A stretch of 60,952 bases of DNA, filler included, from Basidiobolus ranarum (Eukaryota), in assembly GCA_040143965.1 (NCBI GenBank). It is 15 parts of 15 records of this genome, joined end to end, with 100 filler letters (N's around TTAATTAATTAA, not from the genome) between each part and the next. Parts side by side here need not be neighbours in the genome. Positions count along the whole stretch, not along the records: positions 36,675 to 40,640 come from JASJQH010002189.1; 14 more parts are not named here. One strand, written 5' to 3'. The position numbers were made by a program, and so were the translations under genes. How positions within the stretch are numbered: position 1 is the stretch's first letter; each line of letters begins with the position of its first letter. The notes beneath the pieces are model-generated. The model was not told the DNA's origin, searched no databases, and saw only the letters and a list, made by a program, of their open reading frames with translations. Shown here piece by piece: positions 12,243 to 48,769 of the stretch.

Positions 12243-12868
12243 TTTGCTCATGATGTTCCACTAGGATTTCCCATGCATTCTTGGCAGAGTCAGCATCTAT
12301 GACTAGCATAAGTTGTTGTGATCCCAGTCTTAGACATATTTCCCTAAATGCCATTCTATATTTTTCTTTGAAGGTTGCCCTGGCTCATTTGTTTCAGTGT
12401 AAGAATTTGTACTTTCATCTTTCAAAGTTTCTTCTTCATCTGGTTGAACTATTTCCTAGATGTGTTTCCCTTCAGGCACAACTTGCATCTTGAATTGAAT
12501 GTTGGAATATCAATAATCTCCTTTTGGAAACAGACTCTAATTCACACGCTGCTACCATGTTGCAGGATCTTGACATTATGGGGATAGACTTTGGGTATTA
12601 GAAGCAACTTATGATAGTTTGTTTTAGTTACTTTGTTCTTCAGAGAATATGGTGACTTAAATATTAGAGATGTGAATCAATTGTTGGAGATACTCAGGAG
12701 TTAATGTAATAAGATATAATAGATAAGTTGAGGTAATATGACAAATTTGTTATATAGAGATAATCCTATTTAGAATATAGGGGCTATAGATACATTGCTA
12801 GCTGTTTCTGATATATGTATCATAACTAAAGTTAACTACAATGTAGAATAAAGATCAATTATCCAACA
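12243..12868 (-). mobile_element. Ty1/copia family C 5' end: LTR 12558-12868, PBS and gag N-terminus
   Basis: The LTR is bounded by TGTTG...CAACA. PBS TGGTAGCAGCG follows at 12547-12557. gag relic AFREICLRLGSQQLMLVIDADSAKNAWEILVEHHEQ. The LTR is homologous to 59014-59683 and 60379-60695. Confidence 0.85.
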
Positions 12869-12884
12869 GTAACTCCGCATCATA

Positions 12885-15420
12885 TTGACTTTCTGCAGTG
12901 CTACCACAACTGTAAGGTAAAGCATAGCCAGTGGCCTCAGTGGGCAAAACTGAAGTCTTTGCACTTATGCCAATTGACATTCACCAGGCTTGGTGCAGCT
13001 GGTGACTTTTTATAGTCATCAGGCTTGTGAATAATTTTTCTATGAAGACTCTGGCTTTCATAGCACAAGAACTTGTGACTATAACAGTGGTGCTTCTTTA
13101 AGCATTTGTGCTACTGCACAGCAAGGATATTGTAGCAAAAAGAACACTCATTATGTAAGGATCTTATATTAGGTATATTCCTTAACAATCATCAGCTGAT
13201 TCTGAATTGGTGTCACAGATATGTTGTCAGGGGATTTATAAGATATTTACAGTAATGGATGGCAATTTTAGCTTGTTATAAGCTGCTTAAAAGCAATTTC
13301 AACTCACAGAGTTTACCATCTGAATATTTCAATGCGAATGAAAACACATTCAAAATCAAAATCAAAACTGGTTTCCAAGCAAAAGCCTGCTGGCTCAAAA
13401 GTAACAAAAAAGCAAGAAAGAGGACTTATTTGATGAGTAGTCTAGCAACCCACTATTCACTTTAGAGGGCATTAACATACTGAAAACTAACTCAAGTAAT
13501 GATAAAGGATTAATTAGCTTACCAGATGTTTTCTTTTCTAGCAATAACGCAAGTGAAGAGATTACAATCCCCAATTATGTAGTAAATCACTAGTTGAGAA
13601 AGGTTAAACAGAAAGCTGTCAAGACCACCAATTTCCACAATACCTGCTTTGAAAACTATTGAACACACTTCCACAAACAATTTGGAAAGAAATATTTCAA
13701 CAAGAGAAGATTAGGCAAAATACTATAATGATTTGTATACAATTAAAGATAAAAGCTACAAAGTTGCTATACAGGCCATAACCAGCAGTAGTGCTGCAAA
13801 CAAAGCAGTGTGCTGAAGCAACTAGTCATTAGTAGACTTGGTCCACTGTGCCAGGATTTATGGGACCTTAGATCAATATATTAAAGCAAATGGGATTGAA
13901 ATTGATCAAGCCAGAGGGTGATGGATAGTCCTAAATTGTGCTGCATAAATCTTAGAATACTTTTTCCAATATGATATATACAGCACAATCTGGCACTATC
14001 ACAGAGAATAAGCCCAGTTAAAGAGTCACACCACAATGATACAAGACCTTCAGAATGCTGTACTTGAGCTACAGCAATATGCTGCTCCCTCTGTCCATTC
14101 TTATATGGGATTTCAATCAATCCCACACCATAAAAATGAATGTCACCATCACAATCTAGCAGAGGAAAAAATGTTTTGCACGATTAAGCCTATATAATAA
14201 CCCAAAATTGCTTGGGCACATGATTGTAAAAATATCATAAGAAAACCAGCAAACCAACACACTCTGAGCATCAGAGCTCTGGTCACTTGCTCTGATGATG
14301 AATGGTTTAACATTTTGGAAACTGTGTGGAATTTTGGCCAAAATCACTTCAGTTTGAGCCAACTGTGAAAAAACAAAAAGTTACTCTGAAGATGCTTGAC
14401 TTGTAACATGTTGCTTCTCCTAGGTTTTTGCAAGCTAGTGGCAATTGGGTTAGTATAGGCCTGTTTATCAAACATCTTAAAAATGTGTGCAATTATCAAC
14501 TTGGAAAAGAACTGGGTCAGATATACAAGAGCAGCTCTCCAACCTCAATAGGTACTTTTTGCAGTGTTAAAATTAGCCTCAAACCTAAAGGCAAGAAAAG
14601 ATCCACACAAACACTGTAAAGCACCCTCAGTTGTGTTGCACTGCAAGGATTTATCAAAATAGTCAAAGTGCTTGAGGAGTATTTTCAAAAGTATGAAGGG
14701 CAAAATGCAGTGCAAGTATGCAAACAGTTGCTAGTGAAGAAGAACATTTAACTTCACATCCAGTCTGTAGTTGACCATGCAAGTACCTAGGAAGAACTTA
14801 ATACCAAGTGGCACAATATCACAGTGTATATGCCAGATAGCTGGAGCAATTTTGATTCAGTATAGTCCAATAAATATTCAGCTCTGCTAGAGTGTAACAG
14901 TGACTCTCATATGTTGGATGTAGGATTGATTGAAATCCAGCATAAGAATGTATAGAAGCATCAATATGTTGTTGCAACTTAAGTACAGCATTCTGAAGTT
15001 CATTTCTCATTTTTGAGTGACTCTCCAACTGATGACTAGTTGCTTCTGAATGCTGCACCAATTGCAAGATGACTTTTTTATGACAATGTCTCAGAACAAG
15101 CTGATAATTTTGATGGGATATAGCTAAAATACCACCCTGATGTAGTTGGTGCTCTTTTCTGCCAAATCCTTCTCATGCTGCAACAAATATATTTAAAAAA
15201 GCCCTTCCATTATTATCACAAAGTCTTGTTCTATGAAAACCAGAGGCCTCGAAGAAAAGTAATCACAAGTATGGTAGTTGTACAAAGCTACCGGCTGGAC
15301 AAAGCTTGGTGAGTCTCAATAGCAATAAGTGCACAAAAAGGACCATAATTGGCCTGCTGGGTCCATTGGCTGTGCTTTACCTCAGTGTTTTGCTAACACT
15401 GCTGAAAGTGAAGAAACTGG
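12885..15420. repeat. Two diverged, oppositely oriented copies of an unidentified repeated, CpG-depleted coding family (family E)
   Basis: 12885-13230 and 13810-14165 align with the reverse complement of ~14880-15420. The segment 14790-14870 (EELNTKWHNITVYMPDSW) recurs at ~39995-40094 and ~45134-45235. Confidence 0.7.
13834..14015 (+). mobile_element. 182-bp MITE (PIF/Harbinger-like) with AGT target-site duplication
   Basis: Same length and sequence as 60071-60252. Flanked by AGT (13831-33 and 14016-18). The other family E copy lacks it at the homologous site (~15030-15045). Confidence 0.8.
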
Positions 15421-15899
15421 GGATTTAACACTGTTATATGACTAGAATTGTGTATCTTGAAGTGCAAGTTTGGTTGCACCAGCAAATGTAGAAAACTTTG
15501 AGGATATGTTGCTAGATGGCAACATTGGATATTGCAGTACAGATGGCAGTAAAACGGAAGAAAATTAAGAAGAATACAAAGGATTTATTATGGACTGTTT
15601 GTTATCAGCAAATATTAGTCCACTGATAATATTTTCAGTAAAGGAAGCAGCCTTGATTATAGAGCAATGGAGAGTCCAATCCAATCTTAGCAACCAGGTG
15701 TTAACTGGTTTTCTTACATTTTTACTGCAGTTGATTGAAAAATATTATTTACCACAGATCCAGTACAAATGGAAAACACTTAGTAATCATATGATATATA
15801 ATCCTTCAGAAACTAAACTACCTTTAGGTCCAAATACTTCATTGGCTGTCACCAAAGAACTGAAAAGCCTAAAGTCATCCCTAACAAAAATAAAATCAA

Positions 15900-16071
15900 T
15901 TTGATTTGGATTGGATCTGCCCTTCCAAAGCACAAACCCATCAGAGAATCATCACAATATCAGTGGCTTGCATTCTGCCAGGGATTTTGATGGTGTGATG
16001 GTGGAATCTTGACAGTTATTCAATGATACTCATACATGTTTAAATATTGATCCTCATATTTAGCATGCATT
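15900..16071 (-). mobile_element. CACTA-type transposase relic (N-terminal part)
   Basis: Aligns with 23965-24135 (ccatcagagaa...ggcttgcattctgccagggattttgatggtgtga). Confidence 0.65.
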
Positions 16072-16220
16072 AGACTTGTTCCATTTTATTAAGCCAGATC
16101 AGGCCAGCTAAAAAGTGTGCAAGCACAAATTGGCATGATTGGGCACTATCTGGCATGATGTTATTTACCATTTTGGAAACAGTTCATTTTACTTATGTGG
16201 TATATTGAAGAAAAGTACTT
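16072..16220 (+). mobile_element. Left end of a MITE-related element inserted after ATT
   Basis: Starts AGACTTGTTCCATT like the 182-bp MITE and interrupts the CACTA relic. Truncated by the contig end. Confidence 0.5.
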
Positions 16221-36367: not shown

Positions 36368-36574
36368 CATCCCCTAACAGAAATTTGAGGATTGTTATTG
36401 TAGGAAAACCATCAAAATTTTAATCCATTTGGGATTGACCATTTACTTAACATCATAAAATTGTCAGGTTAGATTTAGTGAAATTTCAAGATCTTGTAAG
36501 ATAGTTGCACATGATTGGCTACAATCTCAGAGAACTATGGATCAACATATGTGCAAAAAACACAACTCGAATTT
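36368..36574. repeat. Dispersed repeat shared with 39640-39840
   Basis: ccctaacagaaatttgaggattgttattgtaggaaaacc...ctacaatctcagagaactatggatcaaca occurs at both sites. Confidence 0.85.
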
Positions 36575-36674
36575 NNNNNNNNNNNNNNNNNNNNNNNNNN
36601 NNNNNNNNNNNNNNNNNNTTAATTAATTAANNNNNNNNNNNNNNNNNNNNNNNNNNNNNNNNNNNNNNNNNNNN

Positions 36675-37215
36675 ATTCACCCAAGTGATGTGGTGGGCTA
36701 TTTGGATCTTCTCACTTGGCGCCGTGAAGGGACGCTTTGCCAGCATACTCACCGGTGACTGTAGATTCTTTTTCCTACCAGTTTATGGGGCCTTGTATGT
36801 CGTGGGTTACATTCCTGCAAAATTGTTTGCCCTGCTTACACTCTACAATAATTCGTGGGGTACAAACGCTAGATTATTCCGCAACTTTACGAGATATCAA
36901 AATTATCTACCACCCGCTGTATGGATGTTCTTCCTCTTCGCTGGTCTACTTCAGAATTTCCTCGGCTTTATCCCAAGTCTACTGTCACCCACAAGTTCAG
37001 TTGTATTGGTCACAGCCATCGTGGCAACGATAGTGGTTGTATACTACATGATTTACTATTTCGGATTCAAGAAAACCGGGATCTTTGTTAATGTATATAA
37101 GCGAGACTATAGTTACGAAGAGCTATATTCTGCAGTCAAATCCGAGGAAAAATCTACCAACCAACTTACCAACAGTAGAAAGAGAATTCAATTCACTTTT
37201 AGTTCTCACGACTAG
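36675..37215 (+). CDS. C-terminal part of a GT2 hyaluronan-synthase-like (HAS/NodC-like) membrane glycosyltransferase, 5'-truncated
   Basis: GAVKGRFASILTGDCRFFFLPVYGALYVVGYIPAKLFALLTLYNNSWGTNAR...YLPPAVW. The WGT motif and preceding TM helices match the class I HAS C-terminal pattern. The frame is open from the contig edge. Confidence 0.78.
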
Positions 37216-37467
37216 TGTCATAATTTACTTTATTAATTTGCACAACTTACTGTGTAAAATTACCTATGTTGGGTTTAGGAAATACAACTATTCATTATTA
37301 GTAAATATCTCTGTAGACAATAGCTCATCCAATCAATAAACGCCCTTTAGAGCTAAAAAGTATATGTATAAGTATAATGAACACTCCATATATGAGCCCT
37401 TAGATAGTTTGTACACTGGGAGATACGATATGTTCAATATTGACAGTACTAGCATCATTGACCTCCA

Positions 37468-37740
37468 TTGAGTAAATGGTTCTTTGAAGTTCAAGTTTTG
37501 CACCTCGGTTATGAAGTCGTTCAAAGCAATTCCAATAAAGTACGTGATCGAATTTCGTTCATAGAGTCAGTCATTGCGCTTATTCAACAATATAAATTTG
37601 ATGGCTTGGATATAGAGTTCCCCTTGAGTGTTCATCAGGAAAGAGTTGTCATATTGATTCAAGAAATCCGACAGTTCAATCCAATTTCTAAAGGTAAAGA
37701 AAGGTCACTAAATATCATTATATATATTGGCTATGACTAA
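37468..37740 (+). pseudogene. GH18 chitinase-like remnant
   Basis: RISFIESVIALIQQYKFDGLDIEFP resembles the GH18 FDGxDxDWE motif with the motif shortened. The flanking frames are broken. Confidence 0.55.
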
Positions 37741-38538
37741 CTTTTATCATTATATATATTGGCTACGATGAAGTTTTGTGCTGGATTTTAGAACTACGAA
37801 TGCATGAGATATAGTATGATTTGGAAATTTAGTGTACATCATTAACTGTCACTGTGTCCCCAACCTCACCAGGCCTTGAATTGTCTACTTATGCAGGTAT
37901 ACAAATAAGATGGCTTATTTCAAGGTGCATTTGGAACTTGTCAAGTGATTACTAGTAATTGAGGTAGCTATATGGTGAAAGTTTGATCATTGACTTCCAA
38001 GTTTTTATCCACCAACCATATACAAAGATCATTTTTAAGGCCCCACTTTGGCAATACGAGCTTGCAGATGAATACTCACAACCTGCAACCATCAACCAAA
38101 CACATCCTGTACTTTTGAATGATTGGATATAACCAGTGAACAGGCAATCAAACTCAGTTGGGATGACCAAATATAAAGTTCAATTAGGAGAACTAAAGCC
38201 TTGTACGATTTAGTAAACACTAAACAATTGTATGACGCGTATACATGTGCGTCTACATGTGGACCTGAAAAGATATTGGCGACTAAGTTGTGATGTGTGG
38301 GATGTGCGTGATTGCAATCTATCAACCCCTGATTTAGCCAAGAATGGGATTTTCTCCTTATTGGTGGCACGATCGTAATCCTAATTGTAATCCCAATCTC
38401 TGCCGATAATTGGTGGTAACAGATATCCAAATCATAATGGCAACCTCTACTGACAATTGATGGCAAAACGTATATATATATATATCCTCCATCTCTAGTG
38501 TTACTATTAGGGTTAGTGAATAACATCGTGGCATCATC

Positions 38539-39496
38539 ATGGCTCACAAGTTTAACCACAATACTACAGCTGAGAAAGCTGCTACTCTATTTGCTAACAA
38601 TATCAAGGGAAAAACCGTACTAGTAACAGATGCACTTGGGGTGGCCTTGGAGCGGAGACAGCCCGTGTTGTAGCCAAGTATGGTGCTGGCATGGTCATTC
38701 TTGGTGGCAGAAAGCAGGAAACTCTTGACGACACTATCAAAAAGATCAAAGAAGAGACACCAGAAGCCAAACTGCATCCACTTATCATTGATTTAGCGTC
38801 ACTTGAATCTGTTCGTAGTGCAGCCAAAGAGGTCAACGAATACTCTGAACCCATTGATGTTCTAATCAATAATGCAGCAATCATGGCCTCTCCCTATAAT
38901 GCTACAGTAGATGGATTTGAGGCACAATTTGGAGTTAATCACCTTGGTCCTTTCTTGTTCACTAATCTAATCCTGCCCCAAATCCTTGCATCCAAAACTG
39001 GTGCTCCACGCATTGTTAATGTCTCTAGTCTCGGACACAATGTCAGCCCAATTCGATTCGCTGATTATGGATTTAATAATGGCAGAGACTACGACAAATG
39101 GCAAGCATATGGCCAATCCAAGACAGCCAATGTGTTGTTTGCGCTTGAACTGAGCAACCGCTATAAAGGAAAAGGACTCACTGCGTTTAGTCTCCATCCT
39201 GGAGTGATCAGGACCAATCTTTTAAGACACGTTGTTTTGACGCTGAGGTTGCAAATGTGCCTGATGCCAATGGTAAGCCGCAGGGGATTGAGGCTTTGAA
39301 GTGGAAGACCATACCCCAAGGATCAGCTACTCACATTGTTGCCGCGTTTGACCCGTCAATCAAGGATCAAAGTGGTTTGTACTTACGGGATGCACAAGTG
39401 AATAATGCAGCTGCCCAACCATATGCACTAGATGCTGCCAATGCCCACAAATTGTGGGCTCTGAGTGAAAAGCTAGTTGGTCAGAAGTTTGATTAA
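38539..39496 (+). pseudogene. Short-chain dehydrogenase/reductase (retinol dehydrogenase-like) with two frameshifts
   Basis: GKTVLVT[fs ~38628]CTWGGLG Rossmann motif, NNAA, VNHLG, YGQSK, SLHPG. A second frameshift near 39238 leads to KTIPQGSATH...KLWALSEKLVG. Confidence 0.85.
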
Positions 39497-39639
39497 ATTA
39501 GGCAATTGGTACAGAAATCCCTTGGTTACAGAAATCACCGACAACATTGGAATGTGCATAATGTTATGGATGTTACTTGCACTGATGAATAATTCTGAAA
39601 CCAATTTGTTGCTGATGCTGCTTCTCTATTATGTCCTAC

Positions 39640-40094
39640 TATCCCTAACAGAAATTTGAGGATTGTTATTGTAGGAAAACCATAACAATTTTAATCCATT
39701 TTGGATTGACCATTTACTTACCATTATAAAATTTCAAGTTAGATTAGGTAAAATTTGGGATCTTACAAAATAGTTGCACATCATTAGCTACAATCTCAGA
39801 GAACTATGGATCAACACATGTGCAAAAAATGTAACTCTAATTTTACACATTTACCACTTGAATACTCATTTGTCACCTTCAAAATCCCTAGTTTCTTTGA
39901 TTTATTCTTCTGAATATTTTTATAGAGTTCTTCATATCCAAGGTTTAACTCATATCCAACACAAGTTTGTATCAATATCTCTATCAAAGTCCACCATTGT
40001 ATTAACATTGCTGAATCAACATTCTTCCAGCTATTTGGCAGATACCCTGCAATATTGTGCCACTCTGTATTAAGTTCTTCCCAGATATCTGCAC
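39640..40094 (-). repeat. Family E repeat fragment
   Basis: The minus strand reads ADIWEELNTEWHNIAGYLPNSWKNVDS. Homologous to 14790-14870 and 45134-45235; the left part is shared with 36368-36574. Confidence 0.7.
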
Positions 40095-40098
40095 TTAG

Positions 40099-40640
40099 GT
40101 TAGGGGGATAATAAACACCACAGGGTGTAATATATATTTAAGAAAATGATAAACAACTATTATATAAATAAGCCAACGTAGCATAATATGTCAACAATAA
40201 AAGTTGAAGTTACAATATCAAGAAAAAAATGAAGTATGGGAATACTCAGGTTAGTTAAAAACCTTAGAGTTTGCTATTTCCCATGGATGTTGAATGTCAA
40301 AGGGTTAGGGGGATGATAAACACCAGAAGGTGTAATATTTATTTATCAATTTAAACAAAGTCAATAAATAAATAAGCCAAGTTAGAATATAATATTCAAA
40401 GATAAAGTCAAGAAGTTGACAAAGCTGAGTTTCCTAGTAAGCTAGGCCTAAGAGTATTCCAGATAGGATGGAGCCAAGTGTAGAGAATTCCAGAAGGGAT
40501 GGGGCCTAAGTAGAGTTTTCCAGAATGGATGGAGCCAAGAGTAGAGTGTTCCTAGTGAGCTAGGCCTGAGAGTTGCTAGTAGTAAGAAGTTGCTGAAAGT
40601 TGAGATATGAGAGCTGGGAAGGTGCCTTTAGTTCCTTCCC
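40099..40640 (-). repeat. Two LTR-like ends (family D), with an internal ~30-bp tandem array at 40427-40575
   Basis: GTTAGGGGGATRATAAACACCA.A.GGTGTAAT at ~40099 and ~40304. Related sequence at ~35990 and 44940-44985 (inverted). Units AGAGTxTTCCAGAxxGGATGGRGCC. Confidence 0.55.
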
Positions 40641-40859
40641 NNNNNNNNNNNNNNNNNNNNNNNNNNNNNNNNNNNNNNNNNNNNTTAATTAATTAANNNN
40701 NNNNNNNNNNNNNNNNNNNNNNNNNNNNNNNNNNNNNNNNGATGAATTTGTATAGCCAAAATACCCTGATATGGTCTGTGTGCTGCACTAATAGCTATAG
40801 TGACTCAAGCAGGCACCCAGGGCATGGTACTTCTAGTTAGATACCTATTTGGTGTCACT

Positions 40860-41960
40860 ACAATTCCAAAAAGGCACAGCTGATCACATTATATACATTA
40901 AAACAACTGGAAATAGGATCCTCTTCTTGGCACTATATGTGGATGACATGATTATATCCACAAATGAGCTAAAAGCACCCAATCAGATGAAAAGCATCTT
41001 ATCAAACTGATGTGAGATTACAAAAGTAGGTGAAATAAGTTATTTCCTTGGAATCCAATTCTAGAGAGATAAATAAAATCAGAAATCATACTGAATCAGC
41101 CTAAATACACCCTAGAAGTCCTAGAAAGCTTTAGCATGCTGAGTAGCAAGCCTGTATCAAAACCAATGGACCCCAATGTGAAATTAAACAAAATTTCTTT
41201 TGATTGGTGAATTAAGTTATTTCCTTGGAGTCCAAATCAAGCAAGCTAAACCCAGTCAGAAAATCATGCTGAATCAATCTAGACCCATCTGCAGCATCTT
41301 AAAATGCTTCAACATGGAGAATATCAAGCATTTATGAACACCAAGGGATCCCAATGTTAAATCAGTCAAAATTTTGCCCAATTTGGCCCTAAATGACTGA
41401 AATCAAAGCCAAGAGTTCACTAATCAATCCATGGTGGATAGTTAAATGTCTGAGATGGTTGGAACACTTCTAGATATTGCTGTGGCAGTGGGAACTGTCT
41501 GCCAATACAGTGATGCAGACTGGGGAAGAAAGCTTGAGGATAGAAGATCAATGACTGGGTACTCTTTTCTCTATGTAATGGAGCCATAACTTGGAATAGT
41601 AAGAAGCAACCAACCATAGCAACTTCCTCTACAGAAGCAGAGTATATGGCAGCCTCTGCTACTATACAAGAAGCTATGTGGTTAAGGAAGTTATGTGCAG
41701 ACTTTGTATACATGCAAAAATGTGCTCTTGCTGTATTTGAACATAAGAAAGTGGTATTTCATTGGCTGAAAACCCTACATTTCATGCTAAAAGCAAACAT
41801 AAAGTTGTTAGGTATCACTTTGTTAGAGAAGCACTAGAGATTGACACAATTGGACTTGCCTTTTGCCCTACTGAAGAAATGATTGCTGTTTTCTTAACCA
41901 GACCTTAAGTTAAAGCACAATTTGAATTATTAAGATATAAGTCAGGTTCCAGAGTAATAC
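40860..41960 (+). mobile_element. Decayed copia family A RT/RNase H fragments with internal duplication
   Basis: LALYVDD near 40930 and WNSKKQPTIATSSTEAEYMAA near 41590. Homologous to 48870-50190. Confidence 0.88.
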
Positions 41961-42720
41961 TGTTGTGTGCCAGAGAAAAGTGGATAAAAAGTCTTGAACT
42001 TTACTGAATCCAAGAAAAAGTTAGTTGCAGAATCTTAGAACTGTTTAAGCAGCATTTATTGGCCAAGCAAATCTAACTAATATATATCTTGGGAATAGCA
42101 GTCAATTTCTATATTACAGTAGAGATTAGGCTTGCTAGGCAACTAGGCTTGGTGTTCACTAGATGCTGGTGGATACCAGGCTTGGATAAAAGTTAGATGG
42201 GAAGATTGAACTTGTTGAGAAACATTGATAAGTGTTAAGATCCTATATTTGTTGAAACACACACTTAACCCAAAGATTCAGTTAGCTTTATTTATACTTT
42301 TTAATAGCAAAGTGAATTAGTCAGTGCCAAGATAATAGGTGACTGATTCTGATAAAAGAAAATGTGATTGGATAGATAAATAAGTGAGTCATGCATCAGC
42401 TGAAGTCTTAGCAGCAAAAAGTCATTAGTTATAATTCTTGTTACTCATATTGACTTGTGTCTAGGCAGATGACTCAGGGGTTAATACTGGTTGGATAATG
42501 ATCATGTGATTGATCATATGAGCTGAATGCAGGGATAAGAGTGTAGATAGTTAGTCATGTGATATATCATATGTGAGAATCACTGCATAAGATGAGGTGA
42601 CTACTTAGCAATGATGATAAACTAAGCAAATATTCATCCAAGTTGTTTAGATGTGTCGCAAGTTTAAACAACTTGGTATGTTGGTGCACAATAAAGACAA
42701 AATAATAAGTAGAGTAAGAA

Positions 42721-43072
42721 TCTTGAAATTAGGTGAATAGCAACTTGTTACTTGGAAGTTTGTTTATTTATATCTGCTTGTTTAGCACTCATCTCTGCCA
42801 TTCAAAAACATGTGTTTCTTGCTCTAAGTAATAGCAATATCAATTAGATCACTTTTACCAATTTTCACTATTTTCTCAAAACATATCAAAGTCATCTCAA
42901 AGTTTCACCAATGCTTTGCAGGCATATTTGTTATGACCTAAGCACAGCCAATAGTCCTGTTACATAGTAAATAATAAACAAGACATATTCAAAATCATCA
43001 AAACTCAAGTGTCAAATTTATAAATGCAAATCTTGCCTAAAACACTTCCAAATCCAGTAAACACTTTTACCA
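42721..43072 (+). repeat. Family A LTR (decayed)
   Basis: TCTTGAAATTAGGTGAATAGCAACT...ACACTTTTACCA, homologous to 50197-50546. Confidence 0.8.
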
Positions 43073-43559
43073 TCTTTTCCATTGCTCCTTTTCTTCATTT
43101 GTACTTCTTTAGGCCAAAAGTGACAAATATATGGGTCCCTTTTTGCCATAAATTGATTGCATAAAATGCAACACTACAGTAGTCAAACTCAGATAGATTA
43201 AAATTGCAACAGTTTTATTTGGATAACAACCCTCAAATATCTGTTAGAGCATTAAAAGTGGTAACAAGAGTCAGGTATTTTCCAAGTGTTAGTGCTACTC
43301 TAAATTTTAGAAATTTAGCAATATTTCCACCATTAGTTTGCTGGTAAAGTATATTATTGTTGTTAAGTTATGCTTAGCCAGTTCAGTATATGCATATGTA
43401 TAGATTAACCATGAAAAGATTCTTGTATCTTTAGATTCTCATTATGGCAGAATACAGAGCTAAGAATATTTAAATATAAATATGCATAGTGATTGACAAT
43501 CCTATAATGGTAAACCCAGCACTTTGCCATTTGAAATTGCTTCATTCCAATAATTGTCA

Positions 43560-43960
43560 GAAATTCAACAACAGATGCCAAATATGTCATCCAATATTTT
43601 GCCATGAATCATTACTGTCATAATACTGTTAAGAAGCTACTATTGAACCATCAAAATCTTTGGCTAATTGTAAGCCACCAACATTGTGATAGTCCTCTGA
43701 TGGTCTTGTGCTCCAGATAGATGGATGCAATCTGGATTAAATCAGCTGTATCTTTGTTAAAATATATGATTGTGTTTGAAGATTATAGGACCATCCATTA
43801 CTTTCTGGCAACTTACTACAAAACAAGTGTTTGGAGAAGAACAACAATCAATCATACTCTCATAGCCAAGTTGGTCATAAATAATATTCAGTGGAAAACC
43901 AAAGATGATGAACACAGCTTTGGTAAAAATTGCACATTTATCTATGCCCTTGGACTCTCA
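43560..43960 (+). mobile_element. CACTA-type transposase relic (plus strand)
   Basis: The reverse complement aligns with 23960-24140. Confidence 0.55.
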
Positions 43961-44805
43961 TAGATTATGAGCAATGAAAAGAAAGCTGTCTTAAACCTAT
44001 GGATAATTTGTACCACTTAAACCAATTATTTGTAAGAGTTTAGTTGTAAGATGTCACATTCATTTTAGCTGGGAGAAATTTTTTTAATATGTATACAGGA
44101 CTATGCTGAATGTACTATGGCTTGTTCCTTTAACACTTGATTGGACACTATAAGGAACAATATGGCACTATCCCACCATAATTGGACACAATGATTTTTT
44201 TGGTGAAATTGTGCCAGCCTGTACCAAGTTACCCAATTTAATTTTGCCAAATTAAGATTTTAGGTAACTGACAATGCAAGTTCATCCCCTACTTTGTACA
44301 TTACCTATTACTGAACGTGTAACAATAAACAACTTATACTGTAACTTACCCAATCAAATGTATAACCAAGACATTTGTATGTCATTAGGCCAATCATTTG
44401 TCTCTCACTCACACATTATCCTGATCTTCAATTGAGCCCAATGGCTCCTGCATTATGAAACACCAGTAGTTTTGGCACACCAGTGACAAATGACAGTACT
44501 GGATGATGGATCAAGCTGCAGTATAACAGTCATGATCAGAATTGCTTGATTCATCATTTTTTGATCAGCAAATTATTCATTCAATTGTATCAGCTTCTAA
44601 TTGGGTGAGAATGAAAATGGATTAAGCCATATTGAGCCAATACCACTGCATAAGCTTTTTCTTGATGGACATTTTTCATTTAATTGTAGATGTAAGACGT
44701 CCATANNNNNNNNNNNNNNNNNNNNNNNNNNNNNNNNNNNNNNNNNNNNTTAATTAATTAANNNNNNNNNNNNNNNNNNNNNNNNNNNNNNNNNNNNNNN
44801 NNNNN

Positions 44806-45240
44806 CAAAATGTATAAATGCTTAATTTCTGGTCAATAAATAATTATCTCACAAAGCTATTCACAACTCCACTTTTCTAAAGTTCCTCCAAACAGCCCAT
44901 ATTTTCCCAATAATTTATTTATTTGTGTTGTCTAATTTGATATAGATAAAGATTACACCTTCTGGTGCTTTACATCCCCCTAATATTCTTTTGGGAGCTT
45001 ATGTTCTGTCTTGGTAAGCCCATATATAAGTGCAAATGGTTGCTGTCTTTCTTCTTGTAAATCACCAGGGTAGTTATAAGAGCAATGTACTGGGAAGAAA
45101 TTGGAATAGGTTCATTGGAAGGTCCACAGCAACTGTGCAGATATCTATGAAGAACTTAATATGGAGTGGTGCAATGTTGTAGGGTTTGTACCAAACAACT
45201 GGAGGAATGTTGAGTTAGAATAGTTACTACAATGTTGTGT
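44806..45240. repeat. Family D LTR-like end (44806-44985) and family E fragment (45134-45235)
   Basis: attacaccttctggtgctttacatccccctaa is the reverse complement of the 40304 motif. gcagatatctatgaagaacttaatatggagtgg matches the reverse complement of 40060-40094. Confidence 0.65.
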
Positions 45241-45903
45241 TGAGTATGTACTAAAGATGAGAATCTGGCATATACAGAAATACTGAGTATTATACTTGGA
45301 CTAATGCCTATATGAGCAATAATGAGATATTGAAGATTTGATATTTAGTAATATATATGAGCTGTTCCATCCAGTCATGCTTTACTTCATCACGTTAAAT
45401 AGAGCTCCTTTTGATTCATGTATTTACTTCCGTAAGGAGAACCAAACAATCATCCTCTTCAACTTTTATTTCTGCTTACTGACCCTAAAGAAAAGCATAT
45501 AACATTGGTGGAGGTGTATAATGCAATCAAGGTAAACACTTCAAATATAATTCCAAGTTGAAGCTTTCATATACATTAGTGTCTGGCTGCTATTTTAGCA
45601 GCGCCCAATCTGATGATGGTACTTGTGAGCGGAACATTTCTCTATTTGAATCAACTTGCCGCTCAGATCCTAATTCTCATGGCAAGTGTAGCATTTGGTA
45701 GTAGTATTCGTCATGTGTAGCCCAAAAGTACCAATTTACCCAAAACCATATATCATTTGCAAATAGGTGATACGCAATATTTACCAATCAGCCACAAATT
45801 TGATTTCACTAATCCAACTTCGAACAATTCTACAATTGGGGAAGCCCATTGCATAATATTAGTATATACATAGGTTGAATAGCAGAATGACTAGTGGTTT
45901 GCA

Positions 45904-47193
45904 ATGCATTCTTTGCTGTCTGTCAGTACGATTACTAATGCACTTCAAGACTGGAAGAACCGCTTCGAAAACCTATTTTTCACATATGAATGGATCTTGC
46001 TTGGAAGTGAAGACCAACCATGCACAGCGAAACGGAGACGTACTCCAAAACTTATATTTTATGTCTTTTGCACCATAGGCATATGTGGTGTTATCGGATT
46101 GATATACTTTTTGTCAACCCTACGAGACTTCAACCCTGAAGACTGGGTGCCAGATCCCAATCCTCTAACTGGAAAGCCATGGTACAGTTCTAAAGAGGTT
46201 TTGGAATTTAGAAGCTCATATCCGCCTCCAGAATATTCTCTTGCAACACCTTCCTTAACATATATGTTGCAAAGATGCACATCTGGGTTTGGAAGTTATG
46301 TGAACAACCTCTTCAACCTATTCTTAATTGCTCTTGATCACAACATTTCTTTTCACATAATATCACTTGACTGGTGTTATGAATCGTGGTCAACATTTTT
46401 TGAAGACTATTCAAGTGGCTCTTCGGCACCTATCAGTCTGGGGCAATACCGTGGACCTCATCGATGGTGGCACTCTTCAGAGTGGAAATATACAAACATC
46501 AGCTCTCCCGACTTCCATGGCTATCTAACGGTGCAACATTGGGGAAAGAATTTTCAAGAGTTTTACCACAAGCAAATCCATACAATTAAGGGACCAATCT
46601 TCGAAAGAAAGCAAATTCTGGCACAGGCATTATGGGAGCCGAAGCCTATCATTGTAGATGCTGTGATAAGTGTGCGCCAACTCTACGTAGAGAAGGCAAA
46701 TAGGGTGCTTATTTCGATGCACATTCGTCGCGGAGATAAACTTGATGACGAAATGGAGGATATTCCTCTGTACCTGTACTATACCAAAGTAGTGGATTTA
46801 TCTACAAACAAATATCCAGGCAGAGACATTGCACTGTTTGTTTTCTCTGATGACGATAAATCCGTGAGTGAACTTCGAGCTTTACTAGCTGCCTACTCCC
46901 ATATCCATGTTTTTATCCTATCTGATGCATTTAGCCGGTACCCTAGTATTGCCAAAGACTGGACTCCACTTGTGCAACGACAAGGCTATGATCAGGATAA
47001 GTTCAGAGAAGCCGATACTGATTACAAGTATCGCCAAACAGCTGAGCTTATTACTGACATGACATTAGCGGCCACAGCTGACGAGTTTATCTGTACTTAT
47101 AGTTCGAACATTGGACGATTGGTAACTTTACTTCGGACAAAGCCTATTGATACTGTGCATAGCTTGGATTTGGATCAATGGTATCATGACTAG
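45904..47193 (+). CDS. GT23 alpha-1,6-fucosyltransferase-like (FUT8/NodZ-type), type II membrane protein, intronless, 429 aa
   Basis: Basic KRRRTPK followed by a TM anchor and Pro-rich stem. SGFGS loop. Motif I MHIRRGDK, motif II VFSDD, motif III DMTLAATADEFICTYSSNIGRL, and C-terminal SLD..W. Confidence 0.88.
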   Translation: MHSLLSVSTITNALQDWKNRFENLFFTYEWILLGSEDQPCTAKRRRTPKLIFYVFCTIGICGVIGLIYFLSTLRDFNPEDWVPDPNPLTGKPWYSSKEVLEFRSSYPPPEYSLATPSLTYMLQRCTSGFGSYVNNLFNLFLIALDHNISFHIISLDWCYESWSTFFEDYSSGSSAPISLGQYRGPHRWWHSSEWKYTNISSPDFHGYLTVQHWGKNFQEFYHKQIHTIKGPIFERKQILAQALWEPKPIIVDAVISVRQLYVEKANRVLISMHIRRGDKLDDEMEDIPLYLYYTKVVDLSTNKYPGRDIALFVFSDDDKSVSELRALLAAYSHIHVFILSDAFSRYPSIAKDWTPLVQRQGYDQDKFREADTDYKYRQTAELITDMTLAATADEFICTYSSNIGRLVTLLRTKPIDTVHSLDLDQWYHD

Positions 47194-48030
47194 CTTTTGA
47201 TATCTTTCACTGTACCATAAAGCTATGATTTTTGGACCATTTAGCCCTTGTAATATCACTTAATAAATTCACTTACCGCTCTAATTTAAGCGCTAATTTT
47301 GGTGGAGTTTTATGAGCCTAACCCTCAATATGAGTTCCAATTCGGATGTTCCTATTTAGATGGGCTGCTTCCTAGTGTACCTCGTGATTATTAATAGATA
47401 GTGAAATAAAGCAATTTCTATATGTTGACCATCTATCAGAAGGAAGAATTGACCATCTATCAGAAAAACATAGCTACAGTTTTCCTGTTACCCAACGCAT
47501 CTAGTTCATGCACATAGAGCGTACAACTGGATTGCTTTTAACTCGATTGCTTTTAACTGGATTGCTCTTGAATGCAGGGGTATGGTGCTGATCTAGATTT
47601 TAACAAAAGGTATCCATTGTGGTGATTTCTTAATGTTTGGGAAATTCACAGATCTCAAACTGATTATCGTACCAGATATGGCTATTAGGTCGATCTGACC
47701 ATCTTTTCAGTATATTGCATTAGTGTCAATGCCTCGACTGTGATGTAAACGTCAACGACTAGAAAAATGTTCAAGCTGTGATACCCCCCCTCTCAGTACT
47801 AGACTTCATCTAGATTAGCTGTTAAATAGCCCAACCATTGTAACGATAAACATTTTCAACGAAATATACCCTCTAACTGTTTCCTAGCAACTCAGCGGAG
47901 ATTTTATAGATTCACCAAGATGTGCAAACAATGGTTTTATAAGATTTACAGAATAAAAATAATGCTATATAAGGTATACTAACAAGGCTGGTGATTTTTA
48001 CACGAACAAACAGCGACCATTTACAACAAC

Positions 48031-48769
48031 TTACGGAGAGTCATTGCTGGTTGGAAATACATCGGCTTTACATAGAGGGCAATATTTGTTGATTAGCAAC
48101 CATTCATCTAAGCATTGTCGATGAAAGTGATGATTGCAACGAGGTTTCCGAATCAATTCACCATCCCTGTACTCCTCAAGACAAATCACGCATAGGGCGT
48201 CTTCCGTATTAGCCACTCTAAACTCAGGTAGATTGGAGATCTCGCGCATATCTATGAATTCATCCAAGCACGGCTTCTTCTCTTGGCTTAACTTGGATCT
48301 TAATTTACTGAGAAATGATGGTTTATGTGGTAAGGGGACCGAGGTCACACTGGTCATTTGCGCACTGGTGTTGGGGGGTTGGGTTGAGCTGCCATATCGA
48401 TACTTCAATAATGCTACGGATTTGATCTCATCTGGTTTGGCACCTGAACCACCATCAGGTCCAATACGGAAGGTTCGCAACACTATCAGAGCACAAGGTA
48501 AACAAAACACCGCAGCGATACATAACAATACTGGTATAGCCACCATAAAGTAGCCCAAAATAATCATAGCCAGACTCATTCCGAACAATGGTGGCGCAGT
48601 GATTTCACAGGTAGAACTCGTAAACAAGAAGTAATTCCCCATGATGAAAAAGAAGACTCCCACAAAATCGAGTAAAGATTTCGTTCTAGAATAGGATTTC
48701 AAAGAAATCAGTTGGTCGTCATAACAATGTTGCGTAGTTATGATAAATGGGAATTTACCGATCGGCCCA
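48031..48769 (-). CDS. Multi-pass membrane RING-H2 E3 ubiquitin ligase, 5'-truncated
   Basis: CVICLEEY...PRCNHHFHRQCLDEWLLINKYCPLCK. TM helices with CLPC. Intron 48686-48758 gives WADR/TKSLLDF. Confidence 0.88.

Follow-up and report, generated by a model that had tools for sequence, protein, structure and literature searches.

A truncated reading frame at the start of a contig

The window analysed here is a stretch of 60,952 nucleotides, filler included, from the genome assembly of Basidiobolus ranarum (GCA_040143965.1). It consists of 15 contigs of 3960–3982 bp, which are ordered by falling size and joined by N44-TTAATTAATTAA-N44, the joins amounting to 28 runs of N, each 44 bases long, and 14 copies of the same 12-base spacer (TTAATTAATTAA). 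As the window is a concatenation of contigs, genes flanking a spacer are not genomic neighbours. At the start of the contig at 36675–40640 (JASJQH010002189.1) lies an open reading frame that very probably encodes the C-terminus of a class I enzyme of the hyaluronan synthase (HAS) family in a fungus, as judged from family assignment, fold, motif retention, orthology and the clade in which the protein is placed.

The frame runs on the plus strand from 36676 to 37215, is open from the second base of the contig and comprises 179 codons followed by a TAG stop at 37213–37215. A sequence-only reading of this DNA had described an open frame at the contig edge with several transmembrane helices. The four strings quoted for it, GAVKGRFASILTG, FFFLPVYGALY, IPAKLFALLTLYNNSWGTNAR and YLPPAVW, are all present in the translation of 36676–37212, and a hydropathy scan of the fragment detects three hydrophobic stretches (residues 36–57, 80–104 and 101–132).

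When longer proteins were searched for with the fragment, two of 612 candidates matched, and both belong to Basidiobolus ranarum. The first, K7432_009690 (P0003, 442 aa), is identical to the fragment at 34 of 36 positions over its residues 407–442 (94.4%, tblastn), and its gene model ends at residue 442, where the overlap with the fragment stops. The second, K7432_011122 (P0002, 750 aa), aligns ungapped over residues 584–741 with 48.1% identity over 158 aa (tblastn). The window gene is best taken as the orthologue of K7432_009690 in a B. ranarum-like fungus and K7432_011122 as a paralogue; the two diverged paralogues of B. ranarum show 73% identity. The catalytic domain and the first three transmembrane helices (TMH1–3) of the window gene are contained neither in the contig nor elsewhere in the window. 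That the catalytic domain falls beyond the contig had already been proposed, and tblastn of both proteins against the whole window detected nothing more of the gene in the remaining 14 contigs.

An alignment of 66 sequences served to build an AlphaFold2 model of K7432_011122 (mean predicted local distance difference test score, pLDDT, 77; predicted template-modelling score 0.74). Its core (residues ~230–640) has a pLDDT above 90, and a long, disordered N-terminal extension of ~180 residues precedes the part shared with HAS. The helix limits given below were carried over from this model through the ungapped alignment (residue n of K7432_011122 corresponds to fragment residue n-581) and are predictions. 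According to them, the window would encode the gate and half of the channel, namely part of TMH4, interface helix 3 (IFH3), the WGTxxR loop, TMH5, TMH6 and the tail:

36575..36674, no strand: artificial join (N44, TTAATTAATTAA, N44), the "contig edge" that truncates the synthase gene (from the N runs and spacers)
36676..37215, plus strand: 3'-terminal 179 codons and TAG stop of a probable HAS-family family-2 glycosyltransferase (GT2) gene (translation P0001, phmmer, tblastn)
36676..36753, plus strand: predicted C-terminal part of TMH4 (model helix 582–607 of K7432_011122)
36760..36837, plus strand: predicted IFH3, FFFLPVYGALYVVGYIPAKLFALL... (model helix 610–635)
36838..36879, plus strand: putative gating loop with WGTNAR at 36856–36873 (alignment to the frog enzyme XlHAS1)
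36880..36987, plus strand: predicted TMH5 (model helix 650–685; hydropathy peak at residues 80–104)
37003..37077, plus strand: predicted TMH6 (model helix 691–715; strongest hydropathy peak, residues 101–132)
37078..37215, plus strand: putative cytosolic C-terminal tail (37078–37212) and stop (translation)

Several residues in this part can be matched to XlHAS1, for which the PDB index equals the native number + 13. Lys18 (AAG, 36727–36729) in TMH4 aligns with the channel-lining K448, the IFH3 segment FFFLPVYGALYVVGYIPAKLFALL pairs with ...LYSMLYMTGLLPSKYFALLTL in the phmmer alignment, and the W, G, T and R of WGTNAR correspond to W491, G492, T493 and R496 of the WGTSGRK motif, the W, G and T being conserved to at least 90% in the 66-sequence alignment. 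Tyr74, near the start of TMH5, aligns with Y503. The fragment thus keeps the equivalents of K448, W491, G492, T493, R496 and Y503. In the tail, the segment YKRDYSYEE has the counterpart YIRNYGYEE in the paralogue, and the tblastn alignment reaches window position 37155. According to the consulted sections of PMC11750622, the WGTSGRK loop of XlHAS1 folds over bound uridine diphosphate (UDP), the W491A and R496A mutants are inactive, and K448 lines the channel beside GlcA-4, a glucuronic acid (GlcA) unit of the chain.

Family assignment by sequence, fold and functional residues

The 179-aa fragment was compared with 177,635 distinct PDB sequences using phmmer at E≤10, which returned three matches. 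XlHAS1 was found with E=8.1e-8 (query 3–91 on chain residues 446–533, from TMH4 to TMH5), whereas the other two, ATP synthase a (0.004) and SecY (1.2), were put down to membrane composition. As XlHAS1 is the sole meaningful match at this E-value, the likeness to hyaluronan synthase goes beyond chance, and it extends to both sides of the WGT motif and includes the next helix, just as the sequence-only reading had suspected. On the fragment alone no Pfam family reached its cut-off, and NCBIfam gave weak matches to ATP synthase subunit a alone, which were again read as membrane-helix composition.

The longer proteins give a clearer picture. All five distinct PDB matches of K7432_011122 at E≤0.001 are hyaluronan synthases, namely XlHAS1 (1.8e-82) and four constructs of the Chlorella virus enzyme at ~5e-78 (best 4.6e-78). 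The same five were obtained with K7432_009690 at E≤10 together with two spurious matches, and no chitin or cellulose synthase was among its PDB matches even at this threshold. Foldseek searches with the model of K7432_011122 point in the same direction: ranks 1–13 are all hyaluronan synthases with template-modelling (TM) scores, normalised to the target, of 0.84–0.90. The solved class I enzymes are XlHAS1 (8SMM/8SMN/8SMP) and the PBCV-1 enzyme (7SP6-7SPA, 8SNC-E, 9YQ2-5), whose whole architecture is the same as that of the model. The next matches are BcsA (0.37) and ScChs1 (0.37), and ScChs1, CaChs2 and PsChs1 all stay at or below 0.37, the chitin synthase structures recognised among the matches being those of division 1 and of an oomycete only. 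The model shows the HAS architecture of two transmembrane helices at the N-terminus and four at the C-terminus, three interface helices and one glycosyltransferase (GT) domain, and the window part maps ungapped onto its TMH4–TMH6.

The motifs agree with this assignment, since GDDR is present in 263 of the 277 proteins examined and QRRRW in none of them. Chitin synthases and NodC carry EDR, not GDDR, at this position. QRRRW and EDR have been described as the motifs of ordinary fungal chitin synthases (PMC12653383). An ordinary chitin synthase was rejected on these grounds, i.e. the PDB search, the low fold scores and the missing QRRRW, so that one part of the earlier proposal, a class I HAS-family C-terminus distinct from ordinary chitin synthases, is borne out.

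Rhizobial NodC is clearly related, if more remotely. Its profile TIGR04242 matches K7432_011122 with 179.9 bits (E=7.5e-53) and K7432_009690 with 156.1 bits, the homology covering the GT domain up to WGT, but the equivalog cut-off is 550 bits and a NodC equivalog was rejected for this reason. NodC is not known to have the full transmembrane set of HAS. Having no family reserved for HAS, Pfam in turn assigns the orthologue to Chitin_synth_2 (or GT2) as the best family.

The GT-A motifs, which for the window gene itself lie outside the contig, read DSDT, YGDDRHLTN and QQTRW in the two longer B. ranarum proteins. In a 261-row alignment, both proteins keep the DxD, GDDR and QxxRW motifs together with R296, and WGTxxR and K448 are likewise kept in the Basidiobolus proteins; two cells of the short window fragment, those for R287 and Y288, were ignored as wrongly aligned. 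The acceptor collar for N-acetylglucosamine (GlcNAc), consisting of Y288, F292, C307, W382 and S385, is intact, and Y299 and G300 are likewise kept. H174, K177, R341, W342 and R348, which contact UDP-GlcA in the chlorovirus enzyme CvHAS according to the portion of PMC12987647 consulted, are also kept in both. The same residues are present in nearly all of 50 proteins of the Mortierellomycota/Endogone set, 10 from chytrids and Neocallimastigomycota and 19 from Mucoromycotina.

The exception is the equivalent of R287, an arginine at the channel entrance of proven hyaluronan synthases; this position is W in both Basidiobolus proteins (2/2). An R is found at this position in 48 of the 50 proteins of the Mortierellomycota/Endogone set (the others being one W and one gap), in 10/10 from chytrids and Neocallimastigomycota, 19/19 from Mucoromycotina, 5/5 CvHAS-like, 10/10 Dikarya-type and 16/16 chordate proteins. 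In XlHAS1, the R287A mutant retains a turnover of ~15% and makes short oligosaccharides only, as stated in the sections of PMC11750622 consulted. The Basidiobolus proteins further differ from XlHAS1 and CvHAS in their overall identity (~28–32%), their placement in a separate clade and, for K7432_011122, the N-terminal extension.

Relatives, history and contig context

With K7432_011122 as the query, 506 relatives were found at E≤0.001 among 7069 candidates. In the best 120 of these 506, all named organisms are fungi and belong to Basidiobolus, Mortierellomycota, Endogone, Neocallimastigomycota, chytrids, Mucorales, Umbelopsis and Bifiguratus. The Mortierellomycota relatives, which are 45–61% identical to the query (many of them 56–61%), are often automatically named 'Hyaluronan synthase 3'. 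These early-diverging fungal HAS-like proteins share clade and motifs with the window gene and would be its own family, apart from the difference at R287. Several Mortierellomycota members bear public names such as 'ATP-dependent RNA helicase' and 'mannitol-1-/sugar-/sorbitol-6-phosphatase', yet contain GT2 and Chitin_synth_2 domains only, so that these names are likely annotation errors.

When 1.84 billion representatives were searched exhaustively and without a profile, 3236 matched at E≤0.001 and 324 of these at E≤1e-30. Among 30 of the top 150 representatives, the named ones were Branchiostoma HAS2, a lamprey HAS3-like protein, mole HAS3, and proteins from Physocladia, Heliocybe, Tilletia and B. 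meristosporus. One representative, P0128, has a match to CvHAS at 8e-151 and serves as the marker of the chlorovirus HAS clade.

The main tree was calculated with IQ-TREE from 61 rows (LG+C20 model with posterior mean site frequencies, PMSF; support from the Shimodaira–Hasegawa-like approximate likelihood ratio test, SH-aLRT; unrooted). In this tree the window fragment joins K7432_009690 (99), then K7432_011122 (100), Mortierellomycota (99) and Endogone (100), and these rows lie within a 12-row fungal clade that includes chytrids and Neocallimastigomycota (99). This clade groups at 93 with a Mucoromycotina clade, a clade of CvHAS-like proteins and Physocladia, a Dikarya-type clade and one further protein; the chordate HAS clade (99) is placed elsewhere, apart from the fungal clade. 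FastTree recovered the same groups from 132 and from 54 rows.

The Dikarya-type clade was explored with its Tilletia member, which found a Fusarium oxysporum 'chitin synthase', many proteins that go under 'hyaluronan synthase 2' in Sordariomycetes and Dothideomycetes, several from Basidiomycota and a further two from B. ranarum; its 120 listed relatives include none from Cryptococcus. From the taxa and names we infer that this clade corresponds to the ESV and CV classes of Goncalves 2016, i.e. the 'virus-like chitin synthases' such as FgCHS8 and Trichoderma chs8. These belong to the same HAS-like superfamily and share its motifs (grouping at SH-aLRT 93), whereas the window gene is placed in a separate well-supported clade. 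In the consulted parts of Goncalves 2016 (PMC5122149), HAS served as an outgroup and HAS-like fungal proteins were discarded. In addition, virus-like chitin synthase genes have been described as lying in clusters with genes for a UDP-GlcNAc 6-dehydrogenase and a polysaccharide deacetylase (PMC5122149, PMC7053769, both as far as consulted). These partners are absent from the 3.4 kb downstream of the window gene, where a Pfam scan of 41 frames (35 aa or longer) from 37216–40640 gave just a GH18 piece and a short-chain dehydrogenase. The scan of this stretch likewise showed no UDP-glucose 6-dehydrogenase, the enzyme that would provide UDP-GlcA. Finally, three proteins of B. meristosporus and B. 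ranarum (P0192, P0373, P0374) form a second HAS-like lineage that is sister to the FgCHS8-type clade (support 100). The genus Basidiobolus would accordingly hold at least four genes of the HAS-like superfamily.

An old fungal family, common to Mortierellomycota, Endogone, chytrids and Neocallimastigomycota, would be the simplest reading of the history of this gene. The sequence-only reading had raised the possible horizontal acquisition of an animal- or virus-type enzyme, and this part of it found no support. Basidiobolus does inhabit amphibian guts and is reported to have acquired foreign genes (Tabima 2020, PMC7466969, as far as consulted), and the best PDB match of the fragment is indeed a frog enzyme. 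The identity of K7432_011122 to chordate HAS is only ~30–33%, however, compared with 45–61% to Mortierellomycota, the gene nests in a fungal clade (99–100) apart from the chordate and CvHAS-like clades, and B. ranarum has two diverged paralogues. No relative of K7432_011122 was confirmed in 2.9 million viral contigs either, in a scan with six peptide patterns that detects close relatives only (8 pattern stretches matched, 0 confirmed by tblastn). As the nesting and the empty viral scan lend no support to the idea that a giant virus or an animal host recently passed on the gene, we rejected it as extremely improbable. Rather than a special acquisition, the window gene would be an unexceptional representative of a fungal family that is widespread.

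Several points nevertheless count against this picture of orthology and descent. The orthology stands on 36 overlapping residues and on the paralogue, and the catalytic half of this gene copy lies beyond the contig. The trees are unrooted and were calculated without named rows for chitin synthase, NodC, HasA and CPS1, and of the 30 representatives looked up 7 carried an organism name, the rest being metagenome proteins. Moreover, among the best 120 of the 506 relatives there are neither further Zoopagomycota nor an orthologue from B. meristosporus; owing to this patchy distribution an old transfer from fungus to fungus remains a candidate.

The contig itself has a G+C content of 0.384 (0.34–0.40 in the other contigs) and shares dispersed repeats with four of the other 14. 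A repeat at 39643–39843 is 88.7% identical over 203 bp to 36372–36574, the end of the preceding contig, and weaker copies (76–83%) are found in the contigs at 12243–16220, 40741–44705 and 44806–48769. The fragmentation of the assembly is probably owing to such repeats at contig ends.

At 37462–37737 on the plus strand, some 250 bp downstream of where the synthase frame stops, lies an isolated piece of a GH18 (chitinase-family) domain. It matches positions 88–151 of the 317 in the Pfam profile PF00704 at E=5.9e-7, with a score of 29.9 bits where the cut-off is 29.6. Its catalytic motif reads DGLDIEFP, so that the catalytic glutamate position is not retained, and the Pfam scan of 37216–40640 found no second GH18 piece. 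It may be a relic or a single exon of a chitinase-like, non-catalytic protein. Further downstream, a short-chain dehydrogenase/reductase gene is found at 38598–39496 on the plus strand (PF00106, E=8e-27); it seems to go on in a second frame (39191–39493), past a probable intron or frame change near 39200–39300.

One may ask whether the synthase frame is a dead remnant, i.e. a truncated pseudogene copy, or a contaminant, as its 3' end only is seen in a highly fragmented, repeat-rich assembly and the GH18 piece nearby looks decayed. We consider this very unlikely. The frame keeps 179 codons free of stops from the second base of the contig, all functional residues examined are kept and the identity to an annotated B. 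ranarum gene is 94%. In addition, the shared repeats and the similar G+C content argue against contamination, and the contig is not an obvious contaminant.

Possible products and their meaning for fungi

By homology with HAS, the window gene would encode a membrane-embedded, processive family-2 glycosyltransferase of class I (non-reducing-end type), truncated where a 4-kb contig ends. The enzyme would prime on GlcNAc, extend the chain at its non-reducing end and export it through its own channel, the WGTxxR gating loop closing over the nucleotide. This mechanism and the topology are proposed by analogy with the solved enzymes. As to the product, an acidic GlcNAc-containing polymer is a serious candidate, although we give it somewhat less than an even chance. 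Chitin or chito-oligomers come next, and a product of some other kind takes the smaller remaining share.

Hyaluronan proper would be the most far-reaching possibility, i.e. a true hyaluronan synthase that lays down a polymer of alternating GlcA and GlcNAc on the fungal surface, possibly as host mimicry in the gut or tissue of amphibians, reptiles or mammals. The closest solved relatives are two proven class I synthases of the non-reducing-end type, the residues holding the UDP-GlcA carboxylate (K177 and R341) are kept along with H174, Y299, G300 and R348, two basic residues of the channel (R296 and K448) are present, and the motif is GDDR as in HAS. K177 and R341, however, sit in motifs general to the superfamily and do not discriminate between products, and the channel arginine R287 is replaced by W in both Basidiobolus proteins. 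The Pfam assignment to Chitin_synth_2 and the clear relationship to NodC speak against hyaluronan as well, as does the fact that the nearest studied fungal relatives, those of the FgCHS8 type, are reported as chitin-related in the consulted parts of PMC5122149. Furthermore, in a search of Creative Commons-licensed PMC papers and bioRxiv we found no paper joining hyaluronan synthase with Basidiobolus, no report of hyaluronan for Basidiobolus or its fungal relatives and no member of the early-diverging fungal HAS-like family with an experimentally tested function. In the portions consulted of a 2013 and a 2023 hyaluronan review, the sole fungal name is Cryptococcus CPS1, which the latter gives as the only fungal candidate. 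Taken together, hyaluronan itself is an unlikely product.

The alternative is that chitin or short chito-oligosaccharides are made from UDP-GlcNAc alone for the wall or for signalling, in the manner of NodC or of the chitin oligomers that the frog enzyme reportedly makes in vitro. NodC and the Pfam family, which tell against hyaluronan, are here on the supporting side, as are the Dikarya sister group, which has proteins named chitin synthase and in which chitin reportedly declines when FgCHS8 is lost, the intact GlcNAc acceptor collar and the loss of the R287 arginine, which fits a neutral or short product. On the other hand, with 180 bits the NodC match falls well short of its cut-off, the similarity to HAS is stronger, QRRRW is missing from all 277 proteins examined, and the basic R296 and K448 are kept though a neutral polymer needs neither. 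Chitin or chito-oligomers are thus possible, and we put them forward tentatively.

A comparison with CPS1 of Cryptococcus neoformans and its counterpart ZtGT2 is of interest here, as this fungal GT2 protein has been proposed to make a hyaluronan-like polymer. In the parts of King 2017 (PMC5653360) consulted, ZtGT2/CPS1 is a separate family with orthologues in chytrids and Mucor, and according to the 2023 HAS review, as far as consulted, CPS1 is nearer to pneumococcal Cps3S (~26% identity) than to any HAS.

As far as we have seen, the fungal family to which the window gene would belong is visible in databases and little discussed in print. Since full-length relatives are already public and automatically annotated, the fragment itself adds little to them. 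What deserves attention is the family, whose members resemble the proven enzymes of frog and virus far more closely than chitin synthases and have lost hardly any residue of demonstrated importance, and within it the exchange of R287 for W, which appears as a Basidiobolus-specific change of the channel (in both proteins examined).

Hyaluronan is usually seen as an invention of chordates that was copied by a few bacteria and chloroviruses. That early-diverging fungi hold an ancient class I HAS lineage making hyaluronan, or a close acidic polymer of GlcNAc and uronic acid, is at present a doubtful proposition. Should it be true, i.e. should any member of the family make hyaluronan or a related acidic polymer, hyaluronan-type synthesis would extend beyond chordates, a few bacteria and chloroviruses, and ideas on the origin of this polymer would change. 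The wall and surface chemistry of Mortierella, chytrids and Basidiobolus would then be seen anew, and a gut-dwelling and occasionally pathogenic fungus could wear a coat of a host-like polymer.

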